NCBI GenBank assembly: GCA_016841905.1
Contig: JAENYF010000003.1
Span: 1 to 24,000 of the forward strand
Source of the DNA: Desulfoscipio geothermicus
GTDB lineage: Bacteria > Bacillota > Desulfotomaculia > Desulfotomaculales > Desulfallaceae
Direction of reading: 5' to 3'
DNA: 24,000 nt
The notes under the pieces are model-generated. The model was not told where the DNA came from. It made no database searches and was given only the letters and a program-made list of their open reading frames with translations. Positions 5,151 through 12,627 of the stretch are shown piece by piece; the stretch's first letter is position 1, and every line of letters starts with the position of its first letter. The translations under genes and the position numbers were made by a program.

Positions 5151-5753
5151 TTGGAACCGGATCAGATTGCGGAGCATATAGCCGCCTATAGAGCAACCCG
5201 GAATGAAGAACAGTTGGCCCGGGTAGTGCAATACGGCAGCAAGCTGGTGTATCACTTCGCTAATCTTTATGCCAGGGGCAGTGTTAGGGACGACCTGGTC
5301 CAGGCTGGTTTTGAAGGACTGCTCAAGGCCATCAAACGTTTCGACCATAAACGGGGGATTGCTTTTAGTACCTACGCCAGCCACTGTATTTTAGGTGAAA
5401 TAAAACATTATATACGCCAGGAAATTTCTATGAATATACATGCAGATGAAACAAAAGCGACCTGGCTAATACTTGCTGACCGGTTGCCCCGCGTTGATAT
5501 TGGGCAAGGTGGCTTGGCTAATGACCATGATTTAGATGATCGCATTGCCGTAAAAGAAGCAATAGGGGGGTTAAATCAACTGCAGCGCAAAGTTATTTAC
5601 CTCCTGTTTTACCTGGGCTTGCCCCAGGTGCAGGCTGCTCAGCGGTTGGGCATCAGCCAGCGCCAGGTTTCACGTGTTTTGCATGAAAGTTTGAACCAAA
5701 TGGCCCGGTTATTACATGACGGAGAAGGAAAACAGGGAGATGGTTCGTTTTGA
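5151..5753 (+). CDS. Sigma-70 family sigma factor, SigF/SigB/SigG-like (group 3-like) with a shortened region 3
   Basis: Region 2 is DDLVQAGFEGLLKAIKRFDHKRGIAFSTYASHCILGEIKHYIRQE. Region 4.2 is an HTH, QVQAAQRLGISQRQVSRVLHESLNQM. The TTG start lies 7 nt after GGGAGG (5138-5143) and 3 nt after the pilC stop. Its stop overlaps the pilM start (TTGA). Confidence 0.8.
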   Translation: MEPDQIAEHIAAYRATRNEEQLARVVQYGSKLVYHFANLYARGSVRDDLVQAGFEGLLKAIKRFDHKRGIAFSTYASHCILGEIKHYIRQEISMNIHADETKATWLILADRLPRVDIGQGGLANDHDLDDRIAVKEAIGGLNQLQRKVIYLLFYLGLPQVQAAQRLGISQRQVSRVLHESLNQMARLLHDGEGKQGDGSF

Positions 5754-6774: not shown

Positions 6775-7437
6775 ATGAATGTAAGCATAAATTTAACTCC
6801 TCTGGAAATTAAACTGCGGCAGGAACAGCAGCGCAGGCGCCGCATGTTATTAACCATCGGGGGCTTTACTTTGGTATTCCTGCTGGGCATTTACTGCGCG
6901 CTGCTGGCCGCCACGTTACATATGCGGGCGGAGATAAACCAGCTGTCTGAACAAAGACAGGCTATGGAAAGTGAGATTCCCGCCCTTGCACCATACGCCC
7001 GGCAGCAGGCTTTAGTACATCAAACGGAATCAATCATTAAACAAGCGGTTGGTGAACCGCTTGACTGGGCAGGCATGCTGTCCGATACCGGACGGTACAT
7101 ACCACAGAACGTTTGGCTTACAAACTTTTCAGCTGTTTGCAAACCGGGTAACGATGCTAAGCAGCCTGCTCAAGGCAGTGGACAGGCCGAGCCTGGTACC
7201 CAGCAAAGCCCCGCATCCGTCGGTGAGATAACTATCCAGGGTTACGCCACAGATCATGCTTCGGTGGCCAAATGGCTGGAGGATATGTGCCAAGTATCCG
7301 GCTTAAGCGGCATAACCTGTCAGTTTTCCTCCGAAAAATCACTGGACGGGGAAGCGGCTGTCTATTTTGAAATAAAAGCCGATATTATACAGGACGTTTC
7401 CGAGCAAAATCAAGCGTCAAAGGAGGGCGGCAGTTGA
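6775..7437 (+). CDS. pilN: Type IV pilus assembly protein PilN
   Basis: INLTP motif, an R-rich stretch, a single TM segment, a coiled coil and a periplasmic-type core. The ATG lies 2 nt after the pilM stop. Confidence 0.75.
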   Translation: MNVSINLTPLEIKLRQEQQRRRRMLLTIGGFTLVFLLGIYCALLAATLHMRAEINQLSEQRQAMESEIPALAPYARQQALVHQTESIIKQAVGEPLDWAGMLSDTGRYIPQNVWLTNFSAVCKPGNDAKQPAQGSGQAEPGTQQSPASVGEITIQGYATDHASVAKWLEDMCQVSGLSGITCQFSSEKSLDGEAAVYFEIKADIIQDVSEQNQASKEGGS

Positions 7438-8477: not shown

Positions 8478-8513
8478 TGTGCGTCACACCGGGTGAAGGA
8501 GGGGGTTAGGACG

Positions 8514-9764
8514 ATGTCCTGCTCATATGTTAATAAACTTACCTGGGGCGTAGCTATTTTACTTGTTTTAACGGTTATAGCCTGCACTGCGGCATATGCC
8601 GACGGTGAAGCAATGCCGGCTTCCTCAACAACCGAATCCCTCAGCGCAGTGGAGGGTGCTTACGTGGAGGTAGCAGACGAGGAAAGCGGCGAGAAGATTT
8701 CCCTGGATCTGCGGGGTGTGGATTTAAGAGACGCGCTATCCGCGCTGGCCATGGAGATGAACGCCAATATTATCCTGCTGGACCCCAAACCCGTTAAAGT
8801 AAACTTCCAGGCAGATAATACCACCGCCAGGCAGGCCCTGGAATTAATCATCCAGTCTCAGGAACTGGCCTATCTGCAAAACGGCCAGATCATCGTGGTC
8901 GGCCCGGCTGATAAATTGAAAAAGGATTTTTTTAACCAGATGATTTTAACCAGGTTTAGCCTTTTTTACATACCGCCGTCTGAAATGAAGACCTTGCTGG
9001 GCGAACTGGGATTGGATATGACGGCTATTACCGTAAATACCAACGAGAACGCCATTTGGGTGCAGGGCACTGCCCAGGCGTTAAAAAAAGTGCGGGAAAT
9101 AATATATTCGGTGGACAACATGGAAAACCAGGTTTCCCTGGAGCATAAAACCGCTACCCTGACTCAGGTATCTCCGGAAAGGGCCGTGGAATTACTGGCC
9201 GGTGTCGGGGTGGAACTAAAACGCTACGTGCTGCTGGATAACCGGCTGCTGGTATTTGACACCGAAGTGCTCTCCCGCTGGGAGCAGGTGCAAACCATGA
9301 TCGAACAGCTGGATATTCAGGCTGCCAATAAGAACAAGGTGTTTGTATTCCAGCTCAAAAACATAGCAGCCGGTGATGCTGCGGATAGGTTGGAGGAATT
9401 TGGTTTTAGTGAAGTAAAAACCATTGCTTACAACTATGACCGGTTCGGGCATGAATTGATGGTGATCTGCCCACCGTATTTGGAAACCCAGCTGCGCAGC
9501 GCTTTGGTGAGCATGGACACAACCCGTCAGGCAACCAGGGCACCGGTATTAAAAGAATCCGGGGAAAATGCCCATACTAGATTAAGCGCTATGCGTGATT
9601 TACTTAGCGAGTTATCAGGTGTGCCTGTAGCACAGCTTCATATATCAAGGAACCTTTCCGGGGATAAGGATAATCCGGAGTATGTACTCTGGGTGGAGGA
9701 AACACCGGATAAGATTCAGTTGGTTAAGGATTTGATTGACGAGATGGGGGATAAGAAAAATTAG
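8514..9764 (+). CDS. Secretin N-terminal-domain protein (STN/N0 plus several N1-like repeats) lacking the secretin beta-barrel domain
   Basis: A signal peptide with a possible lipobox VIAC or an AYA/D cleavage site. The N0-like stretch is ISLDLRGVDLRDALSALAMEMNANIIL...ARQALELIIQSQELAYLQNGQIIVVGP. N1-like repeats include TRFSLFYIPPSEMKTLLG...IWVQGTAQALKKVREIIYSVD and VFVFQLKNIAAGDAADRLEEFG. The protein ends with no barrel domain. ATG 8514 follows GAAGGAGGGGG. Confidence 0.6.
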   Translation: MSCSYVNKLTWGVAILLVLTVIACTAAYADGEAMPASSTTESLSAVEGAYVEVADEESGEKISLDLRGVDLRDALSALAMEMNANIILLDPKPVKVNFQADNTTARQALELIIQSQELAYLQNGQIIVVGPADKLKKDFFNQMILTRFSLFYIPPSEMKTLLGELGLDMTAITVNTNENAIWVQGTAQALKKVREIIYSVDNMENQVSLEHKTATLTQVSPERAVELLAGVGVELKRYVLLDNRLLVFDTEVLSRWEQVQTMIEQLDIQAANKNKVFVFQLKNIAAGDAADRLEEFGFSEVKTIAYNYDRFGHELMVICPPYLETQLRSALVSMDTTRQATRAPVLKESGENAHTRLSAMRDLLSELSGVPVAQLHISRNLSGDKDNPEYVLWVEETPDKIQLVKDLIDEMGDKKN

Positions 9765-9878: not shown

Positions 9879-10319
9879 ATGTATCAAAAAATTTGTCGTG
9901 CGCTGAGGAACCGTAAAGGGTTCACTCTGGTTGAATTGATGGTGGTTGTGATCATCATTGGTATTTTGGTGGCAATTGCTATTCCGATTTATAATAACGT
10001 TCAAATTAATGCGAAGATAAACGCTCATAACGCAAATGTGCGTACACTTCAAGGGGCTGCCGCAATGATGTATTCAGAGAATGCACCATTATCGGGGGAT
10101 AAAACATGGGCAGCTTCTGACGCCGGTACAACTGCAACAGACTGGAAAAGTTATTTAGCAAAGTATCCAACTAACCCCATTGGTGCTACCATTCCTACTG
10201 GTTATAGTGTTGTCAGTGGTAGCGGTGGAGCTTGGGCAGATGGGTATACGGTTTCGATTACTACTGCCGGTGTTGTAACTGTTACACCGGGTATGCTAGA
10301 AAAAACTGAATCTGAATAA
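9879..10319 (+). CDS. pilA: Major type IV pilin (prepilin with class III signal peptide)
   Basis: AAGGAGGTG lies 7 nt upstream of ATG 9879. Leader MYQKICRALRNRKG is followed by FTLVELMVVVIIIGILVAIAIPIY (G-1, F+1, E+5). It is small, has no cysteines and carries a T/G/S-rich C-terminal half. Confidence 0.9.
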   Translation: MYQKICRALRNRKGFTLVELMVVVIIIGILVAIAIPIYNNVQINAKINAHNANVRTLQGAAAMMYSENAPLSGDKTWAASDAGTTATDWKSYLAKYPTNPIGATIPTGYSVVSGSGGAWADGYTVSITTAGVVTVTPGMLEKTESE

Positions 10320-10326
10320 AGCTAAG

Positions 10327-10356
10327 GGTGCCAGGCACCAAACTTATTAACTTATT
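10327..10356 (+). repeat. REP-like unit copy 1 (GGTGCCAGGCACC palindrome plus AACTTATT x2)
   Basis: GGTGCCAGGCACCAAACTTATTAACTTATT starts 8 nt after the pilA stop. It is the same unit as copies 2-7 below. Confidence 0.8.
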
Positions 10357-10410
10357 CTTTTCTATTATCTAATTATCTGTATCTAATAGTTTAATTAGTT
10401 GCTATTAATT

Positions 10411-10457
10411 AATACGCACTCGAGCAGAAATTAGGGGGTGCGTATTTTATTTTTTTT
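10411..10457 (+). terminator. Rho-independent terminator of pilA
   Basis: AATACGCAC (10411-10419) pairs with GTGCGTATT (10438-10446) around an 18-nt loop, followed by TTATTTTTTTT. Confidence 0.6.
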
Positions 10458-10499
10458 CAATGCATTTTTTTCATGCCTTCGGTTCACAAGCTTGCTGAA

Positions 10500-10566
10500 C
10501 ACCGTATAGTGTGCCAGGCACCTAACTTATCAACTTATTATTGTAATAAGTTTGGTGCCTGGCACC
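10500..10566. repeat. REPIN-like inverted doublet of the REP-like unit (copies 2 and 3)
   Basis: 10511-10530 GTGCCAGGCACCTAACTTAT pairs with 10546-10565 ATAAGTTTGGTGCCTGGCAC at 19 of 20 positions, with a 15-nt loop. The segment 10500-10543 is 44/44 identical to 11779-11822. Confidence 0.8.
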
Positions 10567-10592
10567 TTTTCAAGGAAGGATGACTATAGTTA

Positions 10593-10841
10593 ATGCACAT
10601 CAATGATTTACTTAAACAAGCAGTTGTTCGGGGTGCCTCTGACTTGCATATTATGGCGGGAGTTGCGCCTTTACTAAGAATAAATGGTGAGCTGACTTCA
10701 TTAAACTTCCCACTGTTTACAGCGGATAATACTCTAGAATTGGCCAGGCAAATACTTAACACGGAAAAACTAAACGTGCTAGAGCAGTTTGGTGAGGTGG
10801 ATTTGTCCACTGAATGCCAGGGTTTGGGGTATTTCCGGGTT
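10593..10841 (+). pseudogene. pilT: Truncated second pilT (N-terminal ~83 codons only)
   Basis: MHINDLLKQAVVRGASDLHIMAGVAPLLRINGEL...GYFRV aligns with the N-terminus of the intact PilT (GSDLHINAGVCPVVRVNGEL...SRFRG). Similarity stops at about 10841, and the frame then runs into REP copy 4. No Walker A or any later motif is present. Confidence 0.75.
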
Positions 10842-10864
10842 AAGAAGCTCATTGGAAGCTCATT

Positions 10865-10897
10865 GGTGCCAGGCACCCAACTTGTTAACTTATTATT
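10865..10897 (+). repeat. REP-like unit copy 4 (left boundary of the RAYT array)
   Basis: GGTGCCAGGCACCCAACTTGTTAACTTATTATT. It is directly preceded by a tandem 11-bp duplication of GAAGCTCATTG (10844-10854 and 10855-10865). Confidence 0.8.
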
Positions 10898-10906
10898 GAA
10901 AGCAGA

Positions 10907-10939
10907 AACACCTCTTGTTAAAATGTAACAAGGGGTGTT
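10907..10939 (+). promoter_or_regulatory. 5'-UTR hairpin sequestering the RBS of the RAYT gene
   Basis: AACACCTCTTGTTA (10907-10920) pairs with TAACAAGGGGTGTT (10926-10939) over 14 bp with one G-U pair and a 5-nt loop. The 3' arm contains the SD AAGGGGTG, 7 nt before TTG 10945. Paralogous hairpins lie at 11831-11863 and 11986-12019. Confidence 0.5.
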
Positions 10940-10944
10940 GATTT

Positions 10945-11778
10945 TTGGGTAGGAAACCACGAGTAGAATATTCAGGAGCTTTATACCATGTGATACAACG
11001 TGGAAACAATAGAGAGTACATATTTGAAAAAAGTGAAGATAAGATGTTTTTGTTAAATGAAATTAAAGAAAGAACAACAAACACCGGGTTAAAGCTTTAC
11101 GGTTATGTAATTATGGATAATCATTATCATCTAGTTTTGCAGGTTGGAGATGACCCGTTAAGCAAGCTAATGCACTTTATCAACAGTAGCTATGGCCGCT
11201 ATTATAACCGCGAACATAATCGTACAGGGCATGTATACGATGGCCGTTACAAAGCTATACATATTCAGAATGAAAAATATCTCTTGGCAGTACTAAGGTA
11301 TGTGCACCGGAACCCGGTACAGGCCGGCATATGTGCTCAAGTTAACAAATACAGATGGAGCAGCGACATGTATTACCGCTATAATCGAGAAGGTTTTGTT
11401 GATATAGATTTGCTGTTGGGTATATTATCCAATGATAGGAAAAAAGCAATAATGCATTATACTTCATTTATGGATCAGGAAGATAGTACTGATTATGAAT
11501 GTGGAGAAGTAATTGGCGATAAATCTTTTATGACCTCAATTATTCCACCTAAACAGGAAATTGTTAAAAAGAGCTTGGATGAAATTTTAACCGATACCGG
11601 TGTCTGTTCTACAGATTTTGTGTTAATAAAAAACGGCTCAAGAAAAAGACACCTTGTAAAATACAAAGTGAGCTATGCTGAAGCAGCGTTAAAACAGAAA
11701 TATACCTACAAGAGCATAGGTGAGAATATTAACCTTTCAGCTACTGCAATTTCCAAGCTATTGAGTAGAGTTGATTAG
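10945..11778 (+). CDS. REP-associated tyrosine (Y1, HUH) transposase-like protein, IS200/IS605 TnpA superfamily (RAYT-like), with a C-terminal DnaA-C/Trp-repressor-like HTH
   Basis: Motifs are RKPRVEYSGALYHVIQRGNNREYIF, the HUH motif in YVIMDNHYHLVLQ, GHVYDGRYKA, and a catalytic Tyr context RYVHRNPVQAG...YRWSS. The C-terminal segment SRKRHLVKYKVSYAEAALKQKYTYKSIGENINLSATAISKLL looks like an HTH. The start is TTG. Confidence 0.85.
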   Translation: MGRKPRVEYSGALYHVIQRGNNREYIFEKSEDKMFLLNEIKERTTNTGLKLYGYVIMDNHYHLVLQVGDDPLSKLMHFINSSYGRYYNREHNRTGHVYDGRYKAIHIQNEKYLLAVLRYVHRNPVQAGICAQVNKYRWSSDMYYRYNREGFVDIDLLLGILSNDRKKAIMHYTSFMDQEDSTDYECGEVIGDKSFMTSIIPPKQEIVKKSLDEILTDTGVCSTDFVLIKNGSRKRHLVKYKVSYAEAALKQKYTYKSIGENINLSATAISKLLSRVD

Positions 11779-11822
11779 CACCGTATAGTGTGCCAGGCAC
11801 CTAACTTATCAACTTATTATTG
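11779..11822 (+). repeat. REP-like unit copy 5
   Basis: CACCGTATAGTGTGCCAGGCACCTAACTTATCAACTTATTATTG starts immediately after the RAYT stop. It is identical to 10500-10543. Confidence 0.8.
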
Positions 11823-11868
11823 AAAGAATTAACACCTCTTGTTAGAATATAGCAGGAGGTGTTAATTT

Positions 11869-11928
11869 TTGGGCAGGAAACCACGAGTAGAGTATTCAGT
11901 AGCTTTATATCATGTGATACAGCGATGA
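11869..11928 (+). pseudogene. RAYT gene 5' stub (19 codons plus stop)
   Basis: LGRKPRVEYSVALYHVIQR* preceded by the same hairpin and RBS architecture. Similarity to the full copy is lost near 11935, where REP copy 6 begins. Confidence 0.7.
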
Positions 11929-11940
11929 AACAAAAAGAAA

Positions 11941-11976
11941 TAGTGTGCCAGGCACCCAACTTATTAACTTATTATT
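11941..11976 (+). repeat. REP-like unit copy 6
   Basis: TAGTGTGCCAGGCACCCAACTTATTAACTTATTATT. It is the exact inverted partner of copy 7. Confidence 0.8.
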
Positions 11977-12024
11977 GAAAGCAGAAACACCTCCTGTTAA
12001 AATATTATCAGGAGGTGTTAATTT

Positions 12025-12582
12025 TTGGACAGGAAACCAAGAGTATAGTATTCAGGAGCTTTATACCATGTGATACAGCGTGGAAACAATAGAGAGTACA
12101 TATTTGAAAAAAGTGAAGATAAGATGTTTTTGTTAAATGAAATTAAAGAAAGAACAACAAACACCGGGTTAAAGCTTTACGGTTATGTAATTATGGATAA
12201 TCATTACCACTTAGTTTTGCAGGTTGAAGATGTCCCGTTAAGCAAGTTGATGCACTTTATCAACAGTAGCTATGGCCGCTATTATAACCGTGAACATATT
12301 GATATAGATTTGCTGTTGGGCATATTATCCAATGATAGGGAAAAAGCAATTATGCATTATACTTCATTTATGGATCAGGAAGATAGTACTGATTATGAAT
12401 GTGGAGAAGTAATTGGCGATAAATCTTTTATGACCTCAATTATTCCACCTAAACAGGAAATTGTTAAAAAGAGCTTGGATGAAATTTTAACTGATACTGG
12501 TGTCTGTTCTTACAAGAGCATAGGCGAGAATATTAACCTTTCAGCTGCGGCAATTTCCAAGCTATTGAGTGGAGTTGATTAG
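12025..12582 (+). pseudogene. Decayed RAYT copy (nonsense codon plus two in-frame deletions)
   Basis: It is near-identical to 10945-11778 but has TAG at codon 8 (12046-12048). One deletion joins YNREH to IDIDLLLG, removing GHVYDGRY...RYVHRNP and so the catalytic Tyr. A second deletion removes TDFVLIKNGSRKRHLVKYKVSYAEAALKQKYT. ORF-track entry 12070-12582 is the re-opened remnant. Confidence 0.8.
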
Positions 12583-12598
12583 ACTATAAAGGTTGTCT

Positions 12599-12627
12599 AT
12601 AAGTTAATAAGTTGGGTGCCTGGCACC
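12599..12627 (-). repeat. REP-like unit copy 7 (inverted; right boundary of the array)
   Basis: ATAAGTTAATAAGTTGGGTGCCTGGCACC is the reverse complement of the core of copy 6 (GGTGCCAGGCACCCAACTTATTAACTTAT). Confidence 0.8.

Follow-up and report, generated by a model that had tools for sequence, protein, structure and literature searches.

A probable TIRtron nest, locally recombined and decayed, behind the major pilin gene of a Desulfoscipio geothermicus contig

Introduction

The type IV pilus locus on contig JAENYF010000003.1 of Desulfoscipio geothermicus (GenBank assembly GCA_016841905.1) carries, directly after its major pilin gene, an array of short palindromic repeats and genes resembling REP-associated tyrosine transposases (RAYTs; REP, repetitive extragenic palindrome). 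The array lies at 10327-12627 of the stretch analysed, which comprises positions 1 to 24,000 of the forward strand and is called the window below. The region is most probably a TIRtron nest, in which a TIRYT (a RAYT-like transposase of the TnpA_Y1 subclass 2.1 type) and its cognate ends of about 29 bp reside at the pilin slot and have been locally recombined and decayed; the assignment to subclass 2.1 rests on shared features and not on a tree. Comparison with relatives gives a basic cassette of about 960 bp, which opens with a left terminal inverted repeat (TIR) and a leader some 50 nt long; the gene, whose start codon is TTG or ATG, comes next, and a spacer of 0-35 nt separates it from an inverted right TIR. 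The left TIR has a palindromic head, GGTGCCWGGCACC, followed by two tandem 8-mers. The element belongs to a known type, which it exemplifies in well-resolved form, and does not represent a new one. Its new details, namely the concerted 8-mers, the conserved leader and the residence at the pilin slot, refine the RAYT-type picture and do not change it.

The repeat units of the window

A pattern search for GTGCCWGGCAC across the whole window found seven occurrences, starting at 10328, 10511, 10555, 10866, 11790, 11945 and 12616, all inside 10328-12626, where shuffled sequences led to an expectation of 0. The full unit was defined as GGTGCCWGGCACC-N-AACTTATYAACTTAT, and the 29-mer pattern GGTGCCAGGCACC-N-AACTTATTAACTTAT, with up to two mismatches allowed, matched six times, at 10327, 10510, 10865, 11789 and 11944 on the forward strand and at 12599 on the reverse strand. 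The units are labelled A (10327), B (10510), C (10544-10566, reverse strand), D (10865), E (11789), F (11944) and G (12599-12627, reverse strand). An earlier note on this DNA had described seven copies of the palindrome followed by two 8-mers, with no further copy in the window. The confinement is borne out, since six full 29-bp units and a truncated one lie within 10327-12627 and none in the rest of the 24-kb window; the two 8-mers are present in six units, and unit C has only one. The TAGT that was said to precede the unit often is seen at three of the seven (B, E and F).

Unit A (10327..10355, forward strand) is a full 29-bp TIR unit of the 'A' variant without mismatch to the 29-mer, and its best inverted partner is unit C, with 96% complementarity across 26 nt (10544-10569). 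Unit B (10500..10543, forward strand; 29-mer at 10510-10538) has the 5' flank CACCGTATAG at 10500-10509. The whole 44-mer 10500-10543 is identical to 11779-11822 at unit E, and the sequence differs on both outer sides. Unit C (10544..10566, reverse strand) is a truncated inverted unit with the palindrome and one 8-mer. B and C form the hairpin that had been proposed for them, with arms at 10511-10530 and 10546-10565 (20 nt, 95% complementary) and a predicted fold of -33.5 kcal/mol (z = -8.9); a search of this hairpin against Rfam gave only chance matches to miRNA precursor models. An attempt to read the left flank of unit B beyond CACCGTATAG as a decayed gene end was rejected, as the best alignment was elsewhere and weak. 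Similarly, the 55 nt to the right of unit A were considered as an inverted remnant of the transposase 3' end and dismissed, with 805 and 455 of 2000 shuffles reaching the score.

Unit D (10865..10893, forward strand; one mismatch to the 29-mer) is the left-end TIR of the intact transposase copy, RAYT1, and unit G (12599..12627, reverse strand; no mismatch) is the right-end TIR, placed 16 nt past the stop codon of the dead copy, RAYT3. The two outer units are inverted, as had been stated, and are 97% complementary over 29 nt (10865-10893 versus 12599-12627). The placement of G is that of the canonical right end of relatives, which follows the stop codon by 0-35 nt. Unit F (11944..11972, forward strand), with AAGAAATAG directly before it, is the left-end TIR of the dead copy and is 94% complementary to G. 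Unit E (11779..11822, forward strand; 29-mer at 11789-11817) is a chimera that sits where the inverted right end of RAYT1 is expected; its left flank and unit match unit B, and its right side runs on as an ordinary left-end leader. The inverted repeats of the window are 26-38 nt long, and those of 29-38 nt are 87-97% complementary.

The palindrome centre of each unit (e.g., 10330-10336) contains CCWGG, the recognition sequence of Dcm-type methyltransferases and EcoRII-type enzymes. A sigma-54 promoter reading of GGCAC-N5-TTAT was rejected by inspection, the -12 GC being absent, and a literature search with the palindrome string returned nothing relevant.

The same ends in related genomes

The dispersal and the extragenic bias of the unit were measured in related genomes, with a strict 22-mer of the unit as the query for dispersal. 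This 22-mer was recovered from 82 stretches that represent about 45 species, most of them of Desulfotomaculum-type genera, Desulforudis, Syntrophomonas, Natronincola and their relatives, at 1 to about 11 copies per related genome. About 13 of the 82 stretches carry a transposase homologue, and in the others the units stand alone or form perfect palindromic doublets; no transposase is found within 8 kb of most copies. Nearly all units (98/100) are located outside open reading frames (ORFs) or at their edges, and ORFs cover 83% of the same DNA. The unit is thus a dispersed extragenic family in related genomes, in line with its earlier description as REP-like. A single strict match was found among viral contigs (IMGVR_UViG_3300037963_001327, 30 kb; L169, 3901-3922). 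A Logan contig of 978 nt (L085, 1-978) with the transposase of Desulfallas thermosapovorans has both its first and its last letters exactly at the palindromes, as if the assembler had broken at the repeat.

Homologues with at least 46% identity and both flanks available mostly have the unit starting 78-83 nt before the start codon and an inverted copy 0-35 nt after the stop codon. The bracketing of the RAYT gene by inverted units, described at first for the window, is therefore seen both there and in family members. This left-end/right-end layout is kept in unrelated contexts, for example after the pilin gene, in the comEC/holA gap of Desulforudis, and beside a phospholipase gene in a Clostridia genome. 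Because the layout holds across such contexts, the units are taken as TIRs of about 30 bp whose outer 13 nt are self-complementary. The 29-mer is nearly invariant across genomes whose transposases share only 46-60% identity. The Desulforudis member (L088, 129-5470, a metagenome-assembled genome, MAG) has 52% identity and the same TIRs and is located between comEA-comEC and holA; this association with DNA uptake may be coincidental.

The two tail 8-mers vary in concert. Both read AACTTAT in the window, GAACATA in L087, TAAGTTAT in L091, TAACTTTT in L128, and GACG... in L090. A cassette has one and the same tail variant at its two ends, and the palindromic head is far more conserved (e.g., L087, 4918-5006 and 5835-5870; L091, 200-287). 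Since both copies change together and the same variant occurs at both ends, the 8-mer appears to be a repeated recognition element and is the obvious candidate site for the helix-turn-helix (HTH) domain of the transposase. Homologues at 30-42% identity have TIRs with GGGGTCAG or GGGGACGG, which correspond to the published TIRYT motif GGGGWSAS (example, GGGGTCAGGCTTAACTTTTTAACTTTTG). L128 bridges both TIR types, with the head GGGGTCAGGC followed by two tandem TAACTTTT.

The transposase

RAYT1 (10945..11778, forward strand) is an intact gene with a TTG start that encodes 277 amino acids, with a Y1/HUH domain at about residues 1-150, a linker, and a C-terminal HTH at about 205-277. It is a class-2 Y1/HUH transposase. 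It matches Pfam Y1_Tnp (PF01797, E = 6e-13), and the databases name its homologues RayT. In an alignment of 41 homologues with 45-86% identity, N59-H60-Y61-H62 and R118-Y119-x-H121-x-N123-P124 are invariant or nearly so; H60-Y61-H62 and the catalytic Tyr motif R118-Y119-x-H121-x-N123-P124 are themselves invariant, and the RAYT-like Y1 identity given in the earlier note stands. A W138-S139-S140 motif is also conserved, W138 and S139 in at least 90% of the 41 and S140 in all. The AlphaFold model (pLDDT 87) has as its top structural match in the PDB, by Foldseek, the E. coli TnpA_REP with a REP hairpin (4ER8; E = 1.3e-8, TM 0.75), and IS200/IS605 TnpA structures rank after it at E 8e-6 or weaker, with 2XMA, 2F4F and 2A6M among the matches. 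A sequence-profile search of the PDB gave 4ER8 as the sole match, at a marginal E = 0.019. Because 4ER8 leads the structural ranking and is the sole profile match in the PDB, RAYT1 is considered closer to TnpA_REP than to IS200/IS605 TnpA.

The last 74 or so residues, modelled separately, form five helices (pLDDT 92), and their sole full-length structural alignment is to the DNA-binding domain of Mycobacterium tuberculosis DnaA (3pvp; TMq 0.70, root-mean-square deviation 2.6 A, 73 columns). Metagenomic homologues at 31-37% identity (L113, L120 and L128) have Pfam Bac_DnaA_C at the same position (E = 5e-10, 6e-13 and 7e-7), and the C-terminal profile aligns to one Bac_DnaA_C-bearing homologue at E = 8e-4 in the expected register. 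The C-terminal piece alone had no Pfam match up to E = 10, family members show weak Sigma70_r4/HTH matches, and a PDB profile search of the piece found generic HTH matches only. As the sequence searches are generic, and the structure and the distant homologues point to DnaA, the term 'DnaA-domain-IV-like HTH' is accepted as a statement of divergent homology and not as a family assignment. In that sense the DnaA-like HTH first proposed for this protein is upheld by the 3pvp superposition, the Bac_DnaA_C matches in distant homologues and the profile link.

The two domains suggest how the ends might be used. The Y1/HUH domain would recognise and cut the repeat head as a single-stranded hairpin, like the E. 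coli TnpA_REP on REP hairpins, and the C-terminal HTH would bind the two tandem 8-mers. Isolated ends would be mobilised occasionally, and this would give rise to an extragenic family of low copy number, with units that stand alone or in palindromic doublets. Although common, TIRYT/TnpA_Y1 subclass 2.1 transposases have never been the subject of biochemical study, and the function of their HTH is called unknown (Quentin et al., 2018; PMC6006769). With its clear ends (a short palindromic head and two tandem 8-mers), the present family could be useful for the study of end recognition, and it could give the first tractable test of bipartite recognition in TIRYTs, with Y1 on the head and HTH on the 8-mers. 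The window itself is a natural series of intact, truncated, chimeric and miniature forms that delimits the functional ends.

Gene copies and leader

Three tandem modules of left end, leader and gene start follow units D, E and F, and the earlier description of one intact, one stub and one dead copy holds. The stub and the second leader hairpin (11824..11933, forward strand; hairpin fold z = -5.0) have a TTG at 11870, 19 codons and a TGA at 11927-11929, and the homology ends at about 11933. This second left-end module is 93% identical to the left end of the D. geothermicus MAG L034 and 87-89% identical to its neighbours at D and F. The third leader and the pseudogene RAYT3 (11975..12582, forward strand; hairpin 11986-12019, pseudogene 12025-12582) follow. 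Codon 8 of RAYT3 is TAG, where RAYT1 has an invariant Glu8, and RAYT3 is 276 nt shorter than RAYT1 by two in-frame deletions of 180 nt (60 codons) and 96 nt (32 codons). The former removes the RYxHxNP tyrosine motif and the latter falls inside the C-terminal HTH, so that the inactivation is as had been claimed.

The copies diverge by 2-13%, with the left-end modules 10-13% apart and RAYT1 and RAYT3 2-6% diverged. RAYT1 and RAYT3 share 20 derived sites, as compared with 6 and 2 under the alternative groupings, and by this count they are taken as sister copies. Private changes number 11 in the RAYT3 pseudogene versus 6 in RAYT1.

The leader of RAYT1 (10896..10939, forward strand) contains a -35-like TTGAAA and a 14-bp hairpin (10907-10939, fold z = -2.9) with a TGnTAAAAT extended -10 in its loop. 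The 3' arm contains GGGGTG as the Shine-Dalgarno sequence and is followed by a T-run and then the TTG start. The layout is conserved in 18 family members, with the -35-like TTGAAA abutting the tail, then the hairpin, and the T-run ahead of the start codon. The 5' arm, CACCTCYTG, is complementary to the Shine-Dalgarno sequence CAGGAGGTG, and the extended -10 (TGnTAnnAT) lies inside the loop in about 15 of the 18. RNA reading through from the pilin gene would form the leader hairpin and be terminated or remain untranslatable, because the anti-Shine-Dalgarno arm pairs with the ribosome-binding site and a T-run follows. The element's own transcript would start inside the hairpin at the extended -10 and would be translatable, because the anti-Shine-Dalgarno arm is absent from it. 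The leader hence seems to keep transcription of the element itself apart from read-through. In Desulfotruncus arcticus, one unit is followed by the remnant of a leader hairpin (L025, 3180-3215).

Residence at the pilin slot

The major type IV pilin gene (9880..10319, forward strand) has an N_methyl motif (E = 1.4e-9), reads MYQKICRALRNRKG/FTLVELM, and stops 7 nt before unit A. The cassette is found directly after the pilin gene in five species, namely the window organism, D. geothermicus L034, Desulfotruncus arcticus L025, Desulfallas thermosapovorans L083 and Desulforamulus aquiferis L070/L086, which represent four named genera plus the window organism and two NCBI families. The gene order pilC-M-N-O-x-secretinN-pilin-transposase is seen in L034, L025, L083 and L086/L070. 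The closest available genome is L034, whose transposase is 85% identical in protein by tblastn (86% by BLASTP, product P0002) and 90% in DNA. Transposase identities of 85, 79 and 59% rank like the neighbour-gene identities of 64, 57 and 42%, and the differences between RAYT1 and the L034 gene are 22/17/45 by codon position 1/2/3. Because the slot is shared, the identities rank with those of the neighbours, and changes are enriched at third codon positions, the pattern fits vertical inheritance of the cassette at the pilin slot, under purifying selection, in Desulfallaceae and Desulforamulus.

The content past the cassette is different in each of the genomes compared and includes pilT2, a 4.6-kb block, a mazEF-like pair and an SNF transporter; the window has a truncated pilT2 and a copper-amine-oxidase-N gene. 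The fragment pilT2' (10593..10843, forward strand) is a 5' piece of about 84 codons of a second PilT-type ATPase gene (TIGR01420 residues 2-84, E = 8e-15). It shares 89% DNA and 90% protein identity with the start of the full-length L034 gene and is truncated at the flank of unit D. No full-length pilT2, which would be expected after unit G, is present in the window, and the window genome seems to have lost its second PilT paralogue. Repeat-mediated remodelling, with this apparent loss, is documented at a conserved pilus locus of sulfate-reducing Firmicutes. An intact pilT2 is found directly after the transposase in Desulforamulus aquiferis and 4.6 kb further on in L034. It is an improbable suggestion that the cassette is a domesticated resident of the pilus locus whose activity or hairpin ends make the DNA past the pilin gene a recombination hot spot; if true, a Y1 transposase would be linked to the diversification of a pilus locus. 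An 82-aa antitoxin-like ORF and a 115-aa PemK/MazF-like ORF, both named from sequence only, lie between TIR units past the pilin gene of Desulfotruncus arcticus (L025, 3679-4274).

Formation of the array

The array had been described as captured in mid-amplification, which is doubtful, as its copies are 2-13% diverged, several of its units carry non-element flank and unit E is chimeric. These features point to local recombination between repeats. In Desulfallas thermosapovorans the left TIR directly adjoins the pilin stop region GAAGAATAG, and sequence like GGAAGAATAG precedes the tandem units in L034 (32-nt period), the units in L025 and unit F in the window. The AAGAAATAG before unit F is, by this comparison, read as a relic of the ancestral junction between the pilin 3' end and the left end. 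Likewise, unit D has about 17 nt of upstream flank homologous to the left flank of L034. Units D and F have thus been copied together with non-element flank, which argues for slippage or unequal recombination and not for precise transposition. In L034 and L025, too, the pilin gene is followed by similar nests of tandem units. Those of L034 are three tandem units after the pilin stop (6830-6900, reverse strand; 32-nt period), of which the first two are degenerate, with GGAA(G)AATAG between the units.

Unit C is located 27 nt before the start of pilT2', where Desulforamulus aquiferis (L086) has a degenerate right end that overlaps the transposase stop codon. Because A and C are mutual best inverted partners, share the 'A' variant, and C has this place before pilT2', the segment from A to C is likely a gutted older cassette with unit A as its left end. 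B-C is a miniature left-end/right-end doublet. A tandem segmental duplication of the cassette and the start of pilT2 would put a pilT2' fragment ahead of a second cassette, and would yield exactly the junction seen, in which pilT2' runs to codon ~84 and then passes into the flank of D. The chimeric unit E and extra copies would result if a direct unit located 3' of the gene had undergone unequal exchange with a left-end unit. The 44-nt identity of B and E followed by a normal leader is the signature of such an exchange and explains why RAYT1 is without an inverted right end. Later deletions and a nonsense codon would have killed two of the three copies. Since the copies are 2-13% diverged, these events are not recent.

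Homology to the copper-amine-oxidase-N region of the D. geothermicus MAG L043 begins 11 nt after unit G. An exchange between TIRs was considered for this junction but not adopted, as the L043 homology starts 544 nt past its solitary unit and not at the unit. In L043 (3923-3951 and 4558-6177) that solitary unit is about 600 nt before the homologue (84%) of the Cu_amine_oxidN1 gene, in a non-pilus context; in the window, unit G is about 60 nt upstream of the gene.

Known systems and competing explanations

RAYT-like genes with long flanking TIRs have been named TIRYTs, and the elements TIRtrons; some of their TIRs are self-complementary, and the TIRs make up moderately abundant families, in which they occur singly, as dimers or in clusters (Di Nocera et al., 2013; PMC3733652). 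TIRYTs have been equated with TnpA_Y1 subclass 2.1 (Quentin et al., 2018; PMC6006769). The window element shares with them a RAYT-like Y1/HUH protein longer than classical RAYTs, a C-terminal HTH of the Bac_DnaA_C/HTH_23/HTH_28 kind, long bracketing TIRs that are in some cases partly self-complementary, a Ser motif after the catalytic Tyr region, and families of TIRs. It differs in that its head, GGTGCCAG(GCACC), is a perfect 13-nt palindrome and not GGGGWSAS, and in that its tail consists of two tandem 8-mers. The residence at the pilin slot, the leader with its hairpin and promoter, and the three-copy array are features of the window that the TIRYT papers do not describe. Firmicutes are not mentioned in the main text of PMC3733652 and PMC6006769, and 'Clostridi' is absent from PMC3733652. 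The earlier note had called a Y1 domain with a DnaA_C-like HTH in a Firmicute unusual, RAYT biology being established mainly in Proteobacteria. The fusion is not unusual, as the combination is that of TIRYTs/TIRtrons (PMC3733652), subclass 2.1 occurs in 14.9% of surveyed strains (PMC6006769), and RAYT Group 1 has already been reported in Clostridia (Bertels et al., 2017; PMC5581495). Group 1 occurs in Clostridia and Proteobacteria, has flanking 16-mers at about 12 per replicon, and shows a somewhat higher duplication rate than other RAYT groups (PMC5581495); the paper is without domain architecture or end sequences, and the likeness is by description.

Several points weigh against the TIRtron assignment or parts of it. 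On NCBIfam REP_Tyr_transpos (NF047646) RAYT1 scores 78.7 bits, 1.3 bits short of the cut-off of 80. For the small C-terminal domain, the Foldseek E-values, that of 3pvp included, are not significant, Pfam Bac_DnaA_C is not found in RAYT1 or in 40 close homologues, and hhalign against domain IV of E. coli and B. subtilis DnaA, with approximate query sequences, gave a probability of <1%. The window head GGTGCCAG is off GGGGWSAS at 2 of 8 positions, the strict unit occurs in the closest relative (the L034 genome) at the cassette alone, and covariation in the leader hairpin is modest, with double changes in 3 of 11 pairs. The cleavage site, the strand choice and the roles of the domains are carried over by analogy from TnpA_REP and IS608-type enzymes. 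Site-specific insertion that recurred behind the pilin gene could, in principle, also account for the conserved position, and the order of rearrangements, as reconstructed here, is not a unique one.

The units could instead be classical REPs, B/C a REPIN, and the array an ongoing RAYT-driven amplification followed by decay. The element resembles the classical RAYT/REP system, or REPtron (Nunvar, 2010; Bertels and Rainey, 2011; Ton-Hoang, 2012), in having TnpA_REP as its closest solved fold with the same HUH/Tyr chemistry, homologues that databases call RayT, inverted units flanking the gene, a flanking repeat that is also extragenic, dispersed and, in relatives, present as palindromic doublets, vertical-looking inheritance, and a low copy number per genome. 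However, REPs have a GTAG head, an imperfect palindrome of 20-40 nt and more than 100 copies, whereas the units here lack GTAG, have a palindrome of just 13 nt inside a 29-bp TIR, and reach about 1-11 strict copies in relatives and not hundreds; to state accurately, they are TIRs of about 30 bp with a short palindromic head, and the earlier naming as classical REPs is not retained. TnpA_REP has 165 aa and no HTH domain, and its sequence similarity to RAYT1 is marginal (profile E = 0.019), while the extra HTH domain is typical of TIRYT/subclass 2.1 (PMC6006769). Classical RAYTs are also single-copy, and the divergence of 2-13%, the non-element flank at the junctions and the chimeric unit do not suit an ongoing amplification. 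This explanation is unlikely, though not negligibly so.

An autonomous IS200/IS605-like insertion sequence (IS) could likewise have inserted repeatedly in tandem beside its own end, at a target ...ATAG, with later copies interrupting earlier ones. ATAG does precede three units, the stub ends ...GAAATAG|T just ahead of unit F, and RAYT1 has AATAG at the homologous position; family members in distant lineages also occur in differing genomic contexts. The ATAG is, however, part of the longer conserved GGAAGAATAG, the pilin stop region in Desulfallas thermosapovorans, and has been duplicated together with the units; no 5' flank is conserved at the solitary units found elsewhere, and the stub junction is 6-7 nt longer than a precise insertion at AATAG. 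IS200/IS605 TnpA proteins such as those of IS608 and ISDra2 share the Y1/HUH fold and presumably the recognition of single-strand hairpins. They differ in having about 130-150 aa without HTH, same-strand subterminal hairpins without TIRs, and multi-copy, horizontally mobile elements. The window element departs from them in its inverted ends, its copies that are 2-13% diverged, and its conserved chromosomal slot, the position being shared by five species. The leader would give an IS-like protection from read-through. IS10 and IS200 are protected from impinging transcription, and in IS200 a leader structure limits transposase expression; the leader of the window resembles these. Taken together, the insertion-sequence explanation is quite improbable.

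A host function for the units, as terminators, mRNA-stabilising hairpins or host-factor sites kept for pilin expression with the transposase as a passenger, is very improbable. It draws on the location of units 0-10 nt past the point where the upstream gene stops, on the 29-mer being nearly invariant while the transposases are 46-60% identical, and on the palindrome, which scores as a weak terminator-like site. Yet the unit is tied to the transposase gene with fixed spacing on both sides in many unrelated contexts, the tail variants change together at both cassette ends (L087), and a separate, better terminator follows the pilin gene. The latter is a hairpin with a T-run at 10411..10457 (forward strand; -14.7 kcal/mol, z = -4.6, then UUUUAUUUUUUUU), probably the pilin terminator. 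Finally, short repeats do break assemblers, as the 978-nt contig ending at palindromes illustrates, but an artefact of mis-joined repeated reads is extremely improbable because the three copies are 2-13% divergent, each with its own flanks and with distinct deletions, and because nests of this kind also appear in other species, whose genomes were assembled independently.

Neighbouring genes

The array is set in a type IV pilus locus that comprises, within the window, pilB, pilT, pilC, a sigma-70-family gene, pilM, pilN, pilO, a T2SSC-like gene, a Secretin_N/STN gene and the major pilin gene; past the repeat region, a Cu_amine_oxidN1-domain protein is followed by minor pilins. The sigma-70-family (ECF-like) gene is at 5151-5753 between pilC and pilM. 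The 423-aa protein encoded at 8493-9764 has Secretin_N and STN and, by Pfam, no secretin C-terminal domain, an odd feature in a pilus locus of the Gram-positive type. The segment 17377-23645, downstream of the minor pilins, encodes a PAS-GAF-HD(-GYP-type) protein and a partner-switching module made up of two STAS proteins, a HATPase_c kinase, a PP2C phosphatase and an RsbU_N-GAF-GGDEF cyclase. The presence of this segment near the pilus locus suggests control by cyclic di-GMP.

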